Shown in pieces: positions 21,956 to 63,778 of a DNA stretch of 64,000 nt. The DNA is from a virus: the IMG/VR virus record IMGVR_UViG_3300049811_000081, positions 32,001-96,000 of that record, one strand, 5' to 3'. The notes under the pieces were generated by a model. The model was not told the DNA's origin. It searched no databases and was given only the letters and a program-made list of their open reading frames with translations. Numbering within the stretch: the first letter of the stretch is position 1; each line of letters starts with the position of its first letter. A program made the position numbers and the translations under genes.

Positions 21956-22579
21956 TTATCCGAGTGATTGATGTGTGATTATTCCTTTTTCAACATGAAA
22001 ATTCAGCCTTTCTCTGTTAAGGTCTGCGGTTCCCAAATATTTAACACCGTCTTGAACCATAATTCGGAAGTCAACATCATAGGTGTTTAATATTCTTGTG
22101 AGATCCTTAATTTTTTTCCCAACATGATTTTCACTAATTAGTTGAAACCTTTTAAAATTTTTAAAATCATCATTGGTTTTCTTGATGTCTTCTCCACCAT
22201 ATTTTAATTTTAGTTCTTCATACAATTTCCTTTCATTCTCTTCAATTGTTCTTTTCTTTTTTTCCGCAGCTTCTTTCCTTTTTTTCTTTAGTTCATTTTC
22301 TTTTTTTATTCTGGTGTTGTATTCATCGTCGGTTTCTTCTTTATAACAAACCAATCTAATTTCGTATTCATCAAATGAACGCGTATGCTCAACCTCTATT
22401 TTTTTATAATCTTCTATTGGTGTTAATTTGTTCTTAAAATAATTTTCATGTTCGGTGATCGCTTTCGCAATGGTTTGTCTTAGATTGGTTAATCTTTCGA
22501 TAATGAGATCCACATCACCACTTAAAATGTCATCAATATAGACATTTGGCGCGTCTTTTATTTCAATCAGTTTCTTCAT
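21956..22579 (-). CDS. Two-part protein: paralog of 2459..2821 plus a C-terminal I78-inhibitor-like segment
   Basis: KLYEELKLKYG; C-terminal VGK...TADLNRERLNFHVEKGII. Confidence 0.6.
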   Translation of the reverse strand: MKKLIEIKDAPNVYIDDILSGDVDLIIERLTNLRQTIAKAITEHENYFKNKLTPIEDYKKIEVEHTRSFDEYEIRLVCYKEETDDEYNTRIKKENELKKKRKEAAEKKKRTIEENERKLYEELKLKYGGEDIKKTNDDFKNFKRFQLISENHVGKKIKDLTRILNTYDVDFRIMVQDGVKYLGTADLNRERLNFHVEKGIITHQSLG

Positions 22580-23915
22580 TTTTTTTATTTCTTTTATATA
22601 AACTATTACCCGCCATTATACAACCATAAGGAACAATTTCATCCTCTATGATCGCTAATTTATATTTGGTGATCTGATTTTTCACTTGTTCCGCATTTTT
22701 GTATGCGGAAGGTAATTCAGATAAGTCAGGATTATCAAAATAAAATCTGACATCTAACCCCTTAGTTTCTTCTTCAATATTGATTTCCTTTTTAAGGAAC
22801 TTACTTCTGGATAAATTACGTCCAGCACCATGAGGAGCAAACCCCAATGGATTTTCGGGGTGATTAGATACCACCAATACAGGTTGTGACATGTTTAATG
22901 GTATTAACCTTAATCCTGTATTGTTGTCAGGTATCATATCCATCATTGGTGTCGATCCCTTTGCATGATAAAATAAATTGTCTTGTTTAAAAACAAAATT
23001 ATGTTCGTTCCAAAAATGGAGATCAGAAACATATTTTACTTTTTCACGTATTCCAAAGTGTAAAACTTCGTGGTTAAGTTTTGTCCATTCTCTCACAATT
23101 TGCAACGCTTCCCAATATTCAACACCATCTTCGGTATCGTATGGGATCCAGGCATTAATAGAAGGTAGAGATGGGCACAATCTTTTTCTCCACTTTTCAG
23201 CACACATCATCCCTGCTTTATATAACTCAGCCCCCAACCCCCTACTACCGTGATGCGTCACTAAACAGGTTTCACCCGTACTCTTAGACGTTCCAACAAA
23301 TGAAAAGTGGTTTCCATCCCCTTGGGTTCCGAGATGGGTAATGGCCATAGCTTTCGCCTTATCACTAAAAAACCTATTTTTATTAATTCGGTCTAATAAC
23401 TCTTTAGGGGGAACAAATTTATGTGGCGCCTTTCTTTTACCAGCACCAAAATCGGTTAACCTATGAACAATATCCAATATTCTTTTAGGATCGTTACTAC
23501 CATATCCTGTTATCATAACCGAACAACATATGTCGGCACTATGCATCGCGGGATGAATGGCGTTATCGGTAATAACAACACCACCTACAGGGATGTGTCC
23601 AATAGGACCGGCAGGGCATGCGTCTGGCATGATTGCACCCTTATAAACGGTTGGTGTTTTCATCACAACATCCATCGTTTCTTCTACCGAAATAAGGTTC
23701 ACCAATTCTTCCTCAGATTCAGCATCTATGAACTTATCATAAGTTAATGCCTCTTCCTTTGGTACTAACACATTATACTTAGGTATGAAGAGTTCGATGA
23801 TCTCTTTTACATTATCAGAGTTTATCGCGTCAGGATGGTCATTGAAGTATTCAATGACCTCCCCAAACCATGCTGCTGGTTTATACCCCATCGCTATCAA
23901 ATCCTTTCCTGTCAT
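22563..23915 (-). CDS. rtcB: RtcB-family RNA ligase
   Basis: MPDAC, PVGG, DICC, GTxGxGNHF, HHGSRG, EHN, HxKG, HGAGR and ExPSAYK motifs. Confidence 0.93.
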   Translation of the reverse strand: MTGKDLIAMGYKPAAWFGEVIEYFNDHPDAINSDNVKEIIELFIPKYNVLVPKEEALTYDKFIDAESEEELVNLISVEETMDVVMKTPTVYKGAIMPDACPAGPIGHIPVGGVVITDNAIHPAMHSADICCSVMITGYGSNDPKRILDIVHRLTDFGAGKRKAPHKFVPPKELLDRINKNRFFSDKAKAMAITHLGTQGDGNHFSFVGTSKSTGETCLVTHHGSRGLGAELYKAGMMCAEKWRKRLCPSLPSINAWIPYDTEDGVEYWEALQIVREWTKLNHEVLHFGIREKVKYVSDLHFWNEHNFVFKQDNLFYHAKGSTPMMDMIPDNNTGLRLIPLNMSQPVLVVSNHPENPLGFAPHGAGRNLSRSKFLKKEINIEEETKGLDVRFYFDNPDLSELPSAYKNAEQVKNQITKYKLAIIEDEIVPYGCIMAGNSLYKRNKKNEETD

Positions 23916-23916
23916 T

Positions 23917-24504
23917 TTATTTCATTTTTCTAAAAGACGACTTTAAATCAAATCCGTGTGATTGGATTTTTTCTTTATCAGTCATGTTATTTTCAATATT
24001 ATCTTTTGGGGATAACCAGTCAGATAATTTAAGATAGATTTCTTGCGGAGACATTTGCCTATTAAACCCAATCTTATCCAATTGGGGAAACGGGTAAATT
24101 CGATCATGTACCTGTAATAAAATAGGGATGTTATATTTCTCGTTGAAATTAGTTTTTCTCGGACCGAGATATACATTCATATAACTACTATTAAGACCTC
24201 CATCTTTAATAATAACATATTTCTCGTTTGTTCTATAATGGTTTTTAACATCCATAATTTTTTCCAACTCTTGACACCAGAAAGTTTTATTTTCTTTGTG
24301 TAAATAAACTCCACCATATGAAATACCACACAGGTGTAATGTCAGACCATAATTAAAATGTGATGATAACATGTGGGTATCAAATTTGAAAATAGGATAT
24401 TCATACGTCCCCGAATATCTTCTATCGAGCACAATTTTATCATCTACCCCATAGACCCCAGAGAGGTAATCATAGTAGTCTTTATATTTTGAAATAATTT
24501 TCAT
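23917..24504 (-). CDS. Conserved-looking phage protein (KDYYD...HGFDxKxSFR)
   Basis: ORF tightly coupled between NADAR and rtcB. Confidence 0.7.
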   Translation of the reverse strand: MKIISKYKDYYDYLSGVYGVDDKIVLDRRYSGTYEYPIFKFDTHMLSSHFNYGLTLHLCGISYGGVYLHKENKTFWCQELEKIMDVKNHYRTNEKYVIIKDGGLNSSYMNVYLGPRKTNFNEKYNIPILLQVHDRIYPFPQLDKIGFNRQMSPQEIYLKLSDWLSPKDNIENNMTDKEKIQSHGFDLKSSFRKMK

Positions 24505-24974
24505 CTCAGTTCATGTTTTAATAAGGTCAATACCCAACCCAACAAATTCTGTCCTCTCCAATTTTTAGGGTCTTTAATGAGTTCATTATCTTCCCTCAAT
24601 CCAATACCCCATATTCTATCATATGGAGACGCCTCAACCAATATCTTGTCACCAGTTGCAAGTAGTGTCTCTTTTAGTTTCGGGTTCTGTGTGAATTTTT
24701 CATAATTTCCTTTGTAAACTATTTGAAAATTCTTTTCTCCCCATATTTTTTCATCGAAATTTTTAACTCTCCGACCGAGCATTTTTTGAACTTTCGGATC
24801 TTTACTTTGCATAATGAGGTCAGCCATCTCACTATCACCAAAAATAATAGATTTCCTATACATCATGTATTGTTCACAACATTTGAATTTCAATCCCTCA
24901 GTTTCAAATTCTGATGGATACCATTGCGAGAATGGACCATTCCAAAAAAATTCATATTTCTGATTTGAATTCAT
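24501..24974 (-). CDS. NADAR/YbiA family protein
   Basis: FSQWY, EQYMM, KFTQN, LVEASPYDRIWGIG and GxNLLG motifs. Confidence 0.92.
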   Translation of the reverse strand: MNSNQKYEFFWNGPFSQWYPSEFETEGLKFKCCEQYMMYRKSIIFGDSEMADLIMQSKDPKVQKMLGRRVKNFDEKIWGEKNFQIVYKGNYEKFTQNPKLKETLLATGDKILVEASPYDRIWGIGLREDNELIKDPKNWRGQNLLGWVLTLLKHELR

Positions 24975-25596: not shown

Positions 25597-26068
25597 TATT
25601 TTTGATCATTTCAATCAACTCTTCCTTGGTTTTCTCTTTTAGAGTATCAACAGATAAATCACCCGTTAACCTTATTTCACTAATTTCGGATTTGATTTTT
25701 TCCCTCAGTAACGATGTGAGTTCATATGGGATTTGTTTACTGGAACTATCTGACGTAATAAATTCACCAACAGCTCCGCCAGCAACAATAATCAACGCAT
25801 CTTTTTTAGTGGGGATGAAAATATACCCCATCCATGATATAAAGGAAAAGATTGTGAACCATATAAAAAGTTTTCTAAAATTCGTTCCCCAATACTGTAC
25901 TGATTGTTTCTCCTTATCGGTGGGTCTTTCTGACATGGACATATGTGTAAGCACATAGACAACAAATGAGACAATACAAAGAATTGTAAACGCATTTGAC
26001 GTAAAATCAAAAAAACGTTTAACGTTGTCAGCAACTGAAATCCAATAAAAAATCTGATACCAATTCAT
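25577..26068 (-). CDS. Membrane protein
   Basis: TM helices, FIPTKK motif; start moved to ATG 26068. Confidence 0.65.
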   Translation of the reverse strand: MNWYQIFYWISVADNVKRFFDFTSNAFTILCIVSFVVYVLTHMSMSERPTDKEKQSVQYWGTNFRKLFIWFTIFSFISWMGYIFIPTKKDALIIVAGGAVGEFITSDSSSKQIPYELTSLLREKIKSEISEIRLTGDLSVDTLKEKTKEELIEMIKNNGVSNK

Positions 26069-26091
26069 AATATTTGTTTTTATGTAAAAAA

Positions 26092-26529
26092 TTAAATACA
26101 CATTTGTTTCAGTTCTTCCCAAGTCGGTTTAGTTCCTTCCGGAACAAAAAATTCCCAACCATTATCAAAGATTTCTCTTTGTGTAAATACCCAATTGGGA
26201 TCGGTATCGTCAACATATTTTAAAACGGGTTTATTGTCAACCATGTGAAGATACCCACTATCAAATTTTCCCCCATCAGATTGAAAATGATCACAGGTTG
26301 AGGATTGTGCCAAATATTCGTATTCTGAATTATTCGGATTTTTTTCAACCAACTCTAAATATTTTCTCTTCGCATCATACCAATCCTTTACGAAATTTCC
26401 AGACTTAAATGAAGTTGTTTTACCTCCGTGAAATAAACTCACACCACGATATACCATATCGTTTGATATGACATTTCCATCATCGTCATAATTGTTCCCA
26501 CCCTCGTAATTGATCGATATTACTGCCAT
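26092..26529 (-). CDS. Hypothetical protein
   Basis: ORF directly downstream of the structured RNA; start moved to ATG 26529. Confidence 0.65.
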   Translation of the reverse strand: MAVISINYEGGNNYDDDGNVISNDMVYRGVSLFHGGKTTSFKSGNFVKDWYDAKRKYLELVEKNPNNSEYEYLAQSSTCDHFQSDGGKFDSGYLHMVDNKPVLKYVDDTDPNWVFTQREIFDNGWEFFVPEGTKPTWEELKQMCI

Positions 26530-26546
26530 GATATTTTTTTTAAAAA

Positions 26547-26754
26547 TCAAGATAACAACCGCCTTCTAAGTAGGATACTGTTTTAAGGCTGGTTTGCTAG
26601 GAAATAGCGTCCATAATTTAAGTGCTTTCACTTACCTATCAGTACATTAATCTGAACCACTCACATCTTAGAACTGTGAGGTAATAATTGGGACTCAAAC
26701 CCACATAGTAACTAGCTTATATTACTGTTTAGTATTAATCGGTTGTTATCTCAA
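26547..26754 (-). ncRNA. Candidate structured non-coding RNA (~208 nt), family unrecognised
   Basis: 15-bp terminal helix, several internal hairpins, T-loop-like hairpin, 7-bp loop pseudoknot, upstream promoter and boxA-like sequence. Confidence 0.7.
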
Positions 26755-26798
26755 AGAACTTGAATACAAAGATAAAACATTTATATCAATAAACCAAA
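26751..26798 (-). promoter_or_regulatory. Bacteroidota-type promoter (TTTG-N20-TATCTTTG) followed by boxA-like AGTTCTTTGA
   Basis: -33 at 26795-26798, -7 at 26767-26774, boxA-like at 26751-26760. Confidence 0.7.
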
Positions 26799-26805
26799 TT
26801 TATTT

Positions 26806-27000
26806 TTAGAAAATTCTGTCAATCAAAAGGTAACCCAAAAAAATTGATATCGAGAAATATATGATTACTGTCTGAAATTTACTCATTGGGGTTGCCCAAT
26901 ATGTGTCCTTTAAAAAATTAGGTTCAAAAAGTATATATACTCCTCTCAATAAATAGGAGATCGAACCTAACGCAAAAATGACATTTATTAAGATATTCAT
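26806..27000 (-). CDS. Small 2-TM membrane protein (possible immunity-type partner)
   Basis: Two hydrophobic helices directly after the lipoprotein gene. Confidence 0.55.
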   Translation of the reverse strand: MNILINVIFALGSISYLLRGVYILFEPNFLKDTYWATPMSKFQTVIIYFSISIFLGYLLIDRIF

Positions 27001-27013
27001 AATGATAGATTTT

Positions 27014-27604
27014 TTAATCCCACCATTCGAGACAATCTCCGACTTCATATATCATAATCCCAACAGTAATTACCCCAGCAACCCTTCTACCGATTAATTT
27101 CAACGCACCAATAACTGTTCTTTTAGTTGCACCAGCAACAATGGATTCGTATATACTTTGTATCTCCGTAATTCCAATAAGTGTTCCAACCGCAGTTAGA
27201 AAACAACCGAAATCGTCAATGTCTTTCCTAATGGTTAAATCATTGGTTGTGGTTGGTTTTGTTCTTTGATTATACTTTTCATGTAATCCAAGGAAAACCC
27301 CAACCATAATAACACCTTCGGGATCATCAATATAGTCATTCGTTAAATCAATCCCTTCTGTGTCTTTTACATAGGATCCGATTTTATTTGCCAAATCGAT
27401 AAAAACCTCTTTAGCAAACTCCTTATCCTTATCCATTATGATCTCCTGTAAATCCAATTTTTTGTCATCAAAAATATCCTTGATCGATGTGTGAGTGTTT
27501 TTTGACAACTCCAACTTCCAAGGATTTTTGACTTCAATTTCTTCGTTCTTTTTACAAGAAGAAAATAATGTCAACATCAAAACAAAAACAATCAAATTTT
27601 TCAT
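27014..27604 (-). CDS. Lipoprotein with hydrophobic Cys-flanked C-terminal module (bacteriocin-precursor-like)
   Basis: FSSC-KKNEE lipobox; C-terminal CFLTAVG...AGVITVGIMIYEVGDCL. Confidence 0.6.
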   Translation of the reverse strand: MKNLIVFVLMLTLFSSCKKNEEIEVKNPWKLELSKNTHTSIKDIFDDKKLDLQEIIMDKDKEFAKEVFIDLANKIGSYVKDTEGIDLTNDYIDDPEGVIMVGVFLGLHEKYNQRTKPTTTNDLTIRKDIDDFGCFLTAVGTLIGITEIQSIYESIVAGATKRTVIGALKLIGRRVAGVITVGIMIYEVGDCLEWWD

Positions 27605-40127: not shown

Positions 40128-40289
40128 TTATTTTCTTAATATCCTAATACTTGTTACAAGTGTCGCTACAACCAAAAAAGAAAAAAAGTAAATCATGTAA
40201 TCGGGGAAAAACCACGCAATCAATGAAATAATGGTTATTAAAGAAATTATCCCCAAAACCATCAATAAAATTTTAAAATTGTTATCCAT
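40128..40289 (-). CDS. Small 2-TM protein (53 aa, not in ORF track)
   Basis: Manual translation MDNNFKILLMVLGII...SIRILRK. Confidence 0.55.
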   Translation of the reverse strand: MDNNFKILLMVLGIISLITIISLIAWFFPDYMIYFFSFLVVATLVTSIRILRK

Positions 40290-40292
40290 AAA

Positions 40293-40520
40293 TTAGACTT
40301 TATATTTGATTTGAAATTCAACCCCCCACGAGAATGTTAACCACTTAAAGGTAAACGAAACCGGAGAAATTTCCTCAGTATTTTTTAAAATTTTATTTTG
40401 ATTATATACAAAAACGACTGTTGGTAGAATGTACCACGTTAAATTATCGAAGCTATAATATGATGTTATTGAACAAAATACGTTCCCAAAGAAATTTAAA
40501 TGCTTAGTGTTCAATGTCAT
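40293..40520 (-). CDS. Hypothetical protein
   Basis: ORF track. Confidence 0.5.
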   Translation of the reverse strand: MTLNTKHLNFFGNVFCSITSYYSFDNLTWYILPTVVFVYNQNKILKNTEEISPVSFTFKWLTFSWGVEFQIKYKV

Positions 40521-61051: not shown

Positions 61052-63778
61052 TTACTCTCTCCAAAAATATAACATTTGTAAATTGTTGTCTGTACCTAAA
61101 AACATTATAAACGATCTAAATCCGAGACTGTTTAATCTATTTATCAAGTTGTTTCTATCGTTTTCATTATAAAAAAAATGTGCATGATGATACTCCATCG
61201 ATATGTTTTTAATCTTTAAAAGATTTTCATCACTAATACCAGAAAATATATCTAATTCTGACCCTTCCACATCTACTTTTAAGAAATCAATTTTATCTAT
61301 CAAATTGGATTCAAAAAGATAATCAAGTGTATAGGTTCTTGCTTTATAAAAATTTTGTCCAAATTCTTTATTTAAAAAATTAGAACCACCTAAATGATCA
61401 CTTTCGTAAAAGTACCCCCGACCAACTTCGCTATGGACACCCGCATTAAAAAGAATTGATCTATCATCAGAATTTAATTGTAATAGTTTGAAATATCGCT
61501 TATCTGGTTCAAAAGATATAACTTTAGATGCTCCTTGTGAATATGCCCATCTGTTGAAGATACCGATATTTGCTCCTAAATCAACAACAATGTCACCATC
61601 ATTTATTCTTTTGGTTCTGTGTAAATAATAGTCTTGTAGATTAAAAATTTCGTGATATATACAATAATCCCAACCGTATTGATCCGCGACCTGTAAAGAA
61701 GATCCTTCAAACCCTTTTATTTCCCCCAAATTTTTACAAACATTTTCTTCGGTGAAGAAATATTCAGAACTGTGAAAGTTTTTATCTCTTTTTAATTTAA
61801 TAAAATTTATCATTTTTTCCGAAACCTCGGAATTCTTATTTCCATGAAAATATATGATATTGGATTTATCTTTTGGTATGAACTGATATCCATAAATTTT
61901 ATTAAAGTTGTAGGGACCGTTTTTCACCCAAAAAGTAAAAAAATCTTTTAAATTATTTGCAGTGTAACCAACATCCCCATCATATGATGATGTGTCAAAA
62001 TTTGACAACGGTAAATATTTTTTAAACCCATATTTCCATCTTAAAAAATTATCAATACCCTCATCATTCCATAGGAGATATTTTTTGTAATCAATTAAGG
62101 GAATTTGCTTATATACCTCAATTATTTCATTAAACCACCACTCACATTTCTTATTGTAGATGTACATACAGACATGGGCATAGGGATCTGATTTTTTCAC
62201 CTGAAATAATTCACACAGTTTTTCATTAAAGAGTTGAGTTTCTTTTTTATCATTATATTCACCGAAAAATTCTTTTTGTACATGGATGTCAGATATTGGG
62301 TAATTATCAATTTCTTTCATGTATTTGTTTATGTTGTCGATATTGTAGTTAACAATTACATCCCCATCAATCCATACATAATTTTCATAATCTTCTTTTA
62401 GTGATTCTATACATGCATACTGTTTCCAATACCATCTATCATGTTCGGAATACTTTGGTGGGTTGATTGTTTTCTTGATTAAGCATGGGTAATCAAATGG
62501 AACATCACAATCCACACCGTATACTATAATTTTATGATTGGAAAATTCATTTATGGATTTAACTAATTTTTCGATTACAGGCATATATCCAATATTACCC
62601 GTTGTTACAAAAACAAAATTATTATCGGAATTTATTTTTAATAAATGTTCCGATACTTGTGAAGCGATTTTTCCCCAATTAAATTCTTCATGTATTTCCT
62701 GACTTTCTTTTATTGATCTTTTTTTATAGAGATCGTGGGTTTCATAAACCAATTTCATTTTGTATGATAGGTCTTGGAAATCGGGTTCAATATAATTTCC
62801 AACAAAATTAGGGTCTTGTTTTGTTGCTGGTACCTCATCTAAAACACTAACAGGTATTCCCTTACCATTTGCAAACTGTAATTGTGCTCCCCAATTTGAA
62901 TATATTGATGGGGTTCCGCAAGACATTGCCTCAATTAATGGCAAATTCCATCCCTCACTTCTGGCACAAGAAACAAAAACATGACCTTTTTTTAAATAGG
63001 TGATATAGTCTTCTCTTTTTAAAAAATGTAAAACTTTTACTTTATCATTGATTAATCCATAATGATCTAACCTTTCTTCGGTTGAATTAAATCCGTCATT
63101 TGCAAACATATTATCTGCGGATACGAGTAATTGTACGTTATTATTTTGTTTAAATGTTTCAATAAAGGTCTCAATGATTTCCTTTGTTGATTTTCTGTAT
63201 TCCCATCTACCAAACAATAAAAAAGTGAATTTTTCAAACTGTTCTATGTTTTCTTCTGGTTTAAATATGTTAACATCAACCCCCTCTGGTACTACAAATA
63301 TTTTATCTTTATCATAACCTTGTTTAATTAAATTATTTTTTTGCCATTCACTCGGCACCCAAAATTCGTCTAATGTTTTTATTTGATTAAAAAAGTTGTA
63401 TGGGTATTCGGTAGTTTCCCAAACATTGTATCCGATAACATAACCGTCGTATTTGTCATAAAAATACCTATGGTTAACATCATTGAGTATAATGTGTAGG
63501 TCTGGTTTAAAATCAAAATTATACCCATATAAAGGAAAATCTGTTACCGTACCGTCTGAGTTATATAATGTTTGTAAAATCAACATATTCCTCATTTCTT
63601 CCGTCATATACGGTTCTTCATCATGAGCATACTGATTATACCCCTTCCATGTTTTACCGACGGTGTAATTTCTAATTTTTACGGTATGGAATTTATTTAA
63701 GGCTGTGAAAAAAGATCTTGCATGGTTATTATACCCAGTATCCCCAATAAATGAGGTGTGTACCAATATTTTCATCAT
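61052..63778 (-). CDS. GT4 + GT-A-like + FkbM methyltransferase triple fusion
   Basis: GRWEYRK, EGWNLPLIEAM; WIDGD, DE, FHG; VDLGANIG, FEP, KVDVEGSE. Confidence 0.85.
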   Translation of the reverse strand: MMKILVHTSFIGDTGYNNHARSFFTALNKFHTVKIRNYTVGKTWKGYNQYAHDEEPYMTEEMRNMLILQTLYNSDGTVTDFPLYGYNFDFKPDLHIILNDVNHRYFYDKYDGYVIGYNVWETTEYPYNFFNQIKTLDEFWVPSEWQKNNLIKQGYDKDKIFVVPEGVDVNIFKPEENIEQFEKFTFLLFGRWEYRKSTKEIIETFIETFKQNNNVQLLVSADNMFANDGFNSTEERLDHYGLINDKVKVLHFLKREDYITYLKKGHVFVSCARSEGWNLPLIEAMSCGTPSIYSNWGAQLQFANGKGIPVSVLDEVPATKQDPNFVGNYIEPDFQDLSYKMKLVYETHDLYKKRSIKESQEIHEEFNWGKIASQVSEHLLKINSDNNFVFVTTGNIGYMPVIEKLVKSINEFSNHKIIVYGVDCDVPFDYPCLIKKTINPPKYSEHDRWYWKQYACIESLKEDYENYVWIDGDVIVNYNIDNINKYMKEIDNYPISDIHVQKEFFGEYNDKKETQLFNEKLCELFQVKKSDPYAHVCMYIYNKKCEWWFNEIIEVYKQIPLIDYKKYLLWNDEGIDNFLRWKYGFKKYLPLSNFDTSSYDGDVGYTANNLKDFFTFWVKNGPYNFNKIYGYQFIPKDKSNIIYFHGNKNSEVSEKMINFIKLKRDKNFHSSEYFFTEENVCKNLGEIKGFEGSSLQVADQYGWDYCIYHEIFNLQDYYLHRTKRINDGDIVVDLGANIGIFNRWAYSQGASKVISFEPDKRYFKLLQLNSDDRSILFNAGVHSEVGRGYFYESDHLGGSNFLNKEFGQNFYKARTYTLDYLFESNLIDKIDFLKVDVEGSELDIFSGISDENLLKIKNISMEYHHAHFFYNENDRNNLINRLNSLGFRSFIMFLGTDNNLQMLYFWRE

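Follow-up and report, generated by a model that had tools for sequence, protein, structure and literature searches.

An ORF-free gap in a phage genome fragment, best read as a lineage-specific mRNA leader of unusual length that includes a tRNA-like hairpin

For the element analysed here we favour a lineage-specific mRNA leader of unusual length that carries a tRNA-like hairpin; it is not a proven new class of RNA. On this reading, to which we assign a probability of roughly 0.45, a lineage-specific insertion would be transcribed as a long 5' leader, and the helix that closes it (P1) would cap the 5' end of the message as a possible stabiliser or processing site. The original prediction, made from a stretch of 64,000 nt of phage DNA (the window, in whose numbering positions are given unless stated otherwise), had described the element as a pseudoknotted RNA with its own promoter. 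That description is partly confirmed: every motif that it listed is found in place, but most of the interior helices have low pairing probability. The coordinates of the features are collected in Table 1.

Table 1. Positions of the element, of its candidate structural parts and of the flanking signals in the window
Feature	Positions	Strand	Remark
Upstream promoter-like site: TTTG (26827-26824), 21 nt, TAAATTTG (26802-26795)	26795-26827	-	Overlaps end of upstream ORF
Main promoter-like site: TTTG (26798-26795), 20 nt, TATCTTTG as -7 box (26774-26767)	26767-26798	-	Motif
boxA-like word AGTTCTTTGA	26751-26760	-	Judged not meaningful
P1 5' arm, UUGAGAUAACAACCG	26740-26754	-	Pairing probability 0.91
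Competing hairpin AGUAAU-AUAAGCUA-GUUACU	26707-26726	-	Probability 0.9; aligns with variable arm of type-II tRNA
tRNA-like module: GUAAUA/UAUUAC enclosing UGGG-UUUGAGU-CCCA (26703-26689)	26681-26725	-	Spacing 5+7+5+7
Hairpin CUCACA-GUUCUAAGA-UGUGAG, loop UUCUAAG	26660-26680	-	Probability 0.3
Second domain of the original prediction	26576-26644	-	Only the UAAGUG-AAAG-CACUUA hairpin (26634-26619) robust
CUUAGAA, candidate pseudoknot partner of loop 26673-26667	26564-26570	-	Complementary to UUCUAAG
P1 3' arm, CGGUUGUUAUCUUGA	26547-26561	-	Pairing probability 0.97
Leader U5-A8-UAUC, directly 5' of ATG (26529-26527)	26530-26546	-	Sequence
145-aa gene	26092-26529	-	First gene of operon running to NADAR and RtcB

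The source record, an IMG/VR virus of 110,304 bases, is 33% complete according to CheckV, which makes it a jumbo-phage fragment from a genome of ~330 kb. GC content of the phage DNA is ~31%. Near-identical DNA is present in three wetland metagenome runs, and a small part of it in one subsurface run; the contigs of runs X1 and X3 are identical over the element, and runs X2 and X4, with a depth of ~2-6 and no contig over the element, are uninformative in this respect. A crude gene call shows the record to be 93% coding, with a median gap of 25 nt and 19 gaps of at least 150 nt. The original prediction had counted the gap studied here among the largest ORF-free ones, and rightly so, as it is one of only 8 gaps of at least 250 nt among 139 and its longest internal stop-to-stop frame (within 26551-26805) amounts to 26 aa. 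A 45-aa stop-to-stop frame on the plus strand (26672-26809) extends just beyond the gap edge. The gap is non-coding in all frames, and a pseudogene remnant was rejected when six-frame translations gave no tblastn match at E < 0.8. GC content of the element is 35%, compared with 22-32% in the other large gaps, except for one short gap at 40%.

All genes around the gap lie on the minus strand. The 145-aa gene that follows the element is succeeded by a phrog_3878 gene, three small ORFs, NADAR, a phrog_4243 gene and RtcB, and both RtcB and NADAR have the same transcription direction as the element, 1.6-2.6 kb downstream of it. NADAR, the phrog_4243 protein and RtcB are closely packed in one direction (22563-24974, minus strand), in a cluster that looks like a phage set for RNA repair and ADP-ribose reversal. 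The family of the 145-aa protein has 262 members, many of them on contigs longer than 300 kb, and 28 invariant residues; the protein's closest relative is 63% identical, and the protein has no Pfam or PHROG family. Although its AlphaFold model is confident (pLDDT 90.7), Foldseek returned no match for it at E <= 0.001 and VIA-align Z scores remained below 5, and a Tad2-like assignment (an Atlas lead) was discarded because its score of 0.76 is at chance level. Single-protein scans of IMG/VR with this protein and with RtcB did not find close relatives. The 196-aa protein encoded upstream of the gap (27014-27604, minus strand) has only 8 relatives, all distant and none in IMG/VR. An identical copy of this 196-aa protein is recorded on a second contig, and a sister strain therefore exists.

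Two tandem sites upstream of the element match the Bacteroidota promoter consensus, which consists of TTTG near -33 and TAnnTTTG at -7 (PMC7366714). The site nearer to the element is the one that had been proposed as a TTTG-N20-TATCTTTG promoter; the motif is there and we judge it credible. Transcription from it would start near 26761-26758, some 6 nt before P1. When contigs of the four metagenome runs were compared with the window at 80% likeness, a 39-nt segment (26768-26806) was matched at ~80% by several otherwise unrelated contigs from all four runs, the similarity stopping at the -7 box. This recurrence suggests a promoter that is reiterated in the phage or its kin, and the segment is probably a reiterated phage promoter. 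One of the matching contigs continues with an ATG ~19 nt further on.

The distance between promoter and gene is what sets this locus apart. Five other full-motif promoter sites in the record lie 15-35 nt from an ATG, as against 237 nt here, and at five related loci (L004, L006, L011, L015 and L023) a TAnnTTTG-like box precedes the orthologous ATG by 20-30 nt. Excising 26547-26754 leaves 29 nt between the -7 box and the ATG, a leader like those of the relatives, and the helix-bounded unit is therefore read as an insertion, although one that we infer only from distant relatives (55-63% protein identity). Neither a second copy, nor a convincing target-site duplication, nor an empty site in a near-identical strain was found. 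According to this proposal, 208 nt within a 15-bp helix would have been inserted downstream of a Bacteroidota-type promoter, separating it from a conserved jumbo-phage gene and its short A-rich leader. Such leaders, lacking a Shine-Dalgarno sequence, are the rule in Bacteroidota (PMC6847099), and 13.5% of mRNAs in B. thetaiotaomicron have a 5' UTR longer than 100 nt (PMC7366714). In the computed ensemble, the region around the start codon (-18 to +12) has a mean pairing probability of 0.47 and is only partly open.

The real terminators of this phage genome are short GC-rich hairpins, and no terminator-like site was called in 26000-27300. P1 was itself considered as an intrinsic terminator or attenuator and rejected, as it encloses 178 nt and is not a short GC-rich hairpin followed by a U-run. 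Moreover, the ATG is 18 nt downstream of the element, and a second promoter would not fit between the two. From the lack of a terminator-like site and of room for a promoter it follows that the operon would be transcribed through the element, which would then most simply be the operon's 5' leader rather than a separate gene. Both the start site and the read-through are predicted from motifs only. A boxA-like leader, which had also been proposed, does not hold up: the window contains 8 matches to the word with at most one mismatch where 8.6 are expected, and about half of the word, its 3' part, is buried in P1. An antitermination leader of the rrn or lambda boxA type was discarded on both grounds.

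The 15-bp closing helix of the original prediction, P1, is indeed present, with pairing probabilities of 0.91-0.97. It consists of 12 contiguous Watson-Crick pairs, two G-U pairs and one A-U pair; at the DNA level it is a perfect 12-bp inverted repeat (13/15 overall) located at the ends of the 208-bp unit. Long-range Watson-Crick runs of at least 12 arose in 2 of 400 dinucleotide shuffles of the 276-nt gap, and runs of at least 15 with G-U pairs allowed in 6 of 400. P1 is moderately above chance. Its rarity is notable for a single gap, but less so when set against the 19 gaps of at least 150 nt and the eight long-range inverted repeats of at least 12 bp in the window. Those eight are mostly A/T only; P1 has a mixed base composition, and it delimits precisely the additional 208 nt that separate promoter and leader. 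Elsewhere in the window, at 61796-61906 and 40264-40397, there are perfect 15-bp inverted repeats that are 81 and 104 nt apart and contain A/T only; they are of the kind that chance gives in an A/T-rich genome.

The fold as a whole is less distinctive. The minus strand (216 nt) reaches -54.2 kcal/mol, with z = -2.65 and 3 of 200 shuffles equally good, so the energy is modestly below that of dinucleotide-shuffled controls, a comparison that the original prediction had named as a check; the plus strand, however, is no worse (z = -3.19). The two G-U pairs of P1 had been taken to fix the orientation of the RNA, but they do not, because the plus strand folds equally well, and the strand is set only by the promoter and the direction of the genes. 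Adjusted for GC content, the energy falls in the top 1.8% of 1020 arbitrary 216-nt windows from the same genome, ~18 of which are equally good, and of the ten largest gaps, one or two have a more negative z than the element. The strongest-folding large gap of the record is G000:C1:1262-1589 (locus L070), ~30.4 kb before the start of the window, which has z = -6.3 on the minus strand. It contains three copies of ATCCAGTG(T) and a further, inverted one (ACACTGGAT), together with a strong GC-rich terminator hairpin, and has no Rfam match. High-GC, strongly folding windows at 99-101 kb of the genome sit inside a 1408-aa ORF.

In the Boltzmann ensemble of the element, only P1 and the UAAGUG hairpin are robust helices. 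The full nested structure of the original prediction has an energy of -40.3 kcal/mol, compared with a mean minimum free energy of -42.5 kcal/mol for shuffled sequences. Its GUAAUA/UAUUAC complementarity is there (26725-26720 / 26686-26681), but as a formed stem it has an ensemble probability of ~0, because the competing hairpin at 26726-26707 takes 0.9. The T-arm-like hairpin that this stem was to enclose is likewise present as sequence and attains a probability of 0.27. As for the pseudoknot, the 7-bp loop complementarity exists, yet it is borderline, an equally good match being found in 4.8% of shuffles of the unpaired bases (P = 0.048), and the hairpin that presents the loop forms with a probability of only 0.3. 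The helices of the second domain are all present as well; the UAAGUG hairpin forms at 0.34-0.78 (0.69-0.78 for its four inner pairs), whereas UACUG/CAGUA is at 0.01. The pseudoknotted architecture, drawn from a single sequence, is for the most part disfavoured by the thermodynamic ensemble. The raised GC content and three individually uncommon features, namely P1, the T-loop hairpin and the loop match, nevertheless leave room for a selected RNA structure.

Part of the interior resembles a piece of a tRNA. The spacing within the module (Table 1) fits a T-stem strand of 5, a loop of 7, a second T-stem strand of 5 and an acceptor 3' strand of 7, followed by the discriminator, and the equivalents of G53-C61, U54, U55, R57 and A58 are in place. 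It deviates in having U at position 56, where tRNA has C56, and mismatches at 49-65 and 7-66, such that the stem comprises four pairs and a G-A mismatch below the UUUGAGU loop instead of the 5 bp of tRNA. Compared with 114 distinct tRNAs of related jumbo phages, the T-arm is identical to several T-arms at 16 of 17 positions, and a 37-nt alignment to the variable arm and T-arm of a tRNA-Ser from a related phage has 28 identities (28/37), a score reached in 2 of 200 shuffles. The two strands of the record (220 kb) contain 48 hairpins that combine a stem of at least 4 bp with a UUNRANN loop, and just two of them, including this one, have three G-C pairs. On the strength of these likenesses the piece is probably tRNA-derived, which accounts for its tRNA-elbow look without implying a tRNA-elbow function.

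The element is, however, no tRNA: it has neither a cloverleaf nor an anticodon arm, ARAGORN makes no call there under default or -ps thresholds and detects neither a tRNA nor a tmRNA anywhere in the window or the record, and the Rfam tRNA model RF00005 has no match at the element at E <= 10. When introns were permitted and the threshold was set down to 80% (-ps80), ARAGORN made a sole call in the region, a tRNA-Glu with a 127-nt intron, which extends past the promoter and is spurious. The statement that the element is not a recognised tRNA or tmRNA is accordingly upheld. Related complete jumbo phages have 32-65 tRNA genes each and the 110-kb fragment has none; the tRNA arrays of this phage are presumably in the missing two thirds of its genome. 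In a tRNA array of one related phage (L034:827-1545 of G007), there is a tRNA-like sequence behind a 219-aa ORF; this sequence has a good T-arm and matching acceptor strands, is not called by ARAGORN and may represent a tRNA that a mobile ORF has disrupted or remodelled.

Searches for relatives of the element returned nothing of substance. At the gathering score, Rfam gave 0 matches in the window; at E <= 10, a single local match came up, to an irrelevant snoRNA model inside a coding region. The novelty claimed for the element is not removed by this check, which agrees with the view that it is no RNase P RNA, 6S RNA or known riboswitch; hammerhead and other ribozyme cores are absent by eye and by Rfam. 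A blastn search in distant mode with 26400-26950 found nothing in 50,697 GenBank phage records, and exact-pattern scans of IMG/VR with a 24-nt T-arm pattern and with the P1 repeats were equally empty. The P1 repeats at similar spacing are absent from the representative genomes of 185,579 species (GTDB), and a 20-nt pattern matched JGI metagenomes only once, by chance, inside a coding region. An alignment of 45 relatives of the 145-aa protein retrieved 30 IMG/VR loci with the orthologous gene, and the element is upstream of none of them, nhmmer and blastn being negative as well; at most of the loci other than the five with a promoter-like box, the gene directly follows another ORF. A covariance model of the structure originally proposed (R1) did not find the element in 26 related records, 10 of them complete, its sole match being a weak one to a T-arm in a tRNA array, and R1 and blastn detected no second copy in the 110-kb record itself. 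In the collections searched, the element is an orphan. The homologs that BLASTn and nhmmer had been expected to supply did not materialise among GenBank phages or the 30 loci, and the suggestion of a cis-regulator of the downstream gene is, in any conserved form, unsupported, given that 0 of 30 loci carry the element and that, in five of them, 20-30 nt separate promoter and ATG.

Among known systems, one close parallel is with the long structured 5' leaders of Bacteroidota, which share with the element the TTTG/TAnnTTTG promoter, the A-rich start region without a Shine-Dalgarno sequence and a length above 100 nt; it differs from them in matching no known riboswitch or leader family and in being absent from the orthologous gene of relatives. 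Processing stems, which are RNase III sites, flank folded RNA in rrn operons and in T7 early mRNA. The element is similar in that a long helix flanks a folded RNA directly after a promoter, but this helix has only 15 bp and the boxA-like word is at chance level. Because RtcB is nearby, we also compared the element with YrlA, a bacterial Y RNA that mimics tRNA, belongs to rsr-rtcB loci and is also found in phages (PMC4201824). YrlA RNAs are 80-130 nt long, have GNCGAA(N0-1)G near the 5' end within a long stem, and are encoded on the same strand as rsr (TROVE) within ~4 kb (PMC4201824). An end-to-end long stem, an internal T-arm-like hairpin and a neighbouring RtcB gene are common to both. The element is, however, ~210 nt long and has no D-arm, no Ro-binding GNCGAA and no Rfam match; CGAA occurs nowhere in its 216 nt, and no TROVE/Rsr match was obtained in the 110-kb record, while controls were found; the record covers ~33% of the genome, and an rsr gene farther away may exist. 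For these reasons a YrlA RNA with an Rsr/Ro partner was rejected.

The preferred reading, an insertion transcribed as a long leader, can be put in terms of a mechanism. The element would be transcribed as the 5' part of the operon mRNA. P1, ~6 nt after the putative start, would tie up the 5' end of the mRNA and leave the U5-A8 start region outside the helix, and this arrangement might be expected to stabilise the 5' end or to provide a processing site. The interior, partly from a tRNA gene (variable arm and T-arm), may have no function of its own.

Three other explanations have to be weighed against this one. The element could be a functionless relic, a tRNA-gene scrap or other DNA left behind by recombination, with pairings that are due to chance or to leftover inverted repeats; we regard this as less likely than the leader but more likely than the other two. 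Almost every relative has a different region upstream of the 145-aa gene, as would be expected of a recombination-prone junction; the element is an orphan, its fold rank (top 1.8%) is unremarkable, and the window offers eight long-range inverted repeats of at least 12 bp. In addition, ~250,000 windows were surveyed, so that coincidences at P ~0.01 are expected, and folds of single sequences are no evidence of function (PMC8250186). What a relic explains less readily is the helix itself, mixed in composition and placed exactly around the additional sequence, and its persistence in a compact genome (93% coding, with a median gap of 25 nt) from which useless DNA tends to go. A DNA-level element, either a miniature inverted-repeat transposable element (MITE) or a pair of protein-binding half-sites 178 bp apart, would account for the perfect 12-bp repeat (13/15) at the ends of an ORF-free unit of 208 bp that resembles a clean insertion into an intergenic leader, and for two strands that fold equally well. 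MITEs are ORF-free units of similar size (~200 bp) with terminal inverted repeats, but this one would be single-copy everywhere searched: the 110-kb record contains no other copy, the repeats at similar spacing are absent from GTDB and IMG/VR, and there is no clear target duplication, the flanking repeat being a 2-nt TG that chance gives one time in 16. The MITE was rejected on this evidence, and a DNA-level element of either kind seems to us quite improbable.

The remaining explanation is that of a discrete, stable and trans-acting phage ncRNA, released by termination at the U-run or by cleavage of P1 and acting as a tRNA mimic or decoy for a host or phage enzyme, perhaps in connection with RtcB and NADAR. 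A strong helix that pairs both ends, sets in ~6 nt downstream of the predicted start and has U5 behind it is what such an RNA would be expected to have, and the T-loop pattern UUNRA on a GC stem, seen only twice in 220 kb (two strands), the loop-to-3' complementarity, the GC content above that of other gaps and the proximity and direction of RtcB and NADAR all point the same way. Against this stand the lack of any homolog or paralog in 26 related records and the record itself, a tRNA-like stem that is practically absent from the ensemble and a T-arm present in about a quarter of it, the failure of tRNA models to recognise the element, and a minus-strand fold that is no better than the plus-strand one. 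Moreover, no terminator-like site was called, the downstream gene, lacking its own promoter, depends on read-through, and six genes lie between the element and RtcB. We therefore consider a discrete ncRNA doubtful. A bolder variant, in which an enzyme such as RNase III or RNase P cuts the leader at P1 or the tRNA-like minihelix and so releases a stable orphan RNA of ~200 nt, with a T-loop elbow and pseudoknot that mimic tRNA and a role as decoy or cofactor in the RtcB/NADAR RNA-repair and counter-defence set, is a long shot.

A selected structured RNA at this place would represent a new phage RNA class beside RNA-repair genes, and might be a tRNA-like decoy against host anticodon nucleases. 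The element also illustrates that a rich-looking fold of a single sequence, complete with helix, T-loop and pseudoknot, can arise with borderline statistical support. On present evidence, the locus indicates something more ordinary, namely that in giant phages of Bacteroidota a lineage-specific leader can be long and can consist in part of tRNA scraps.
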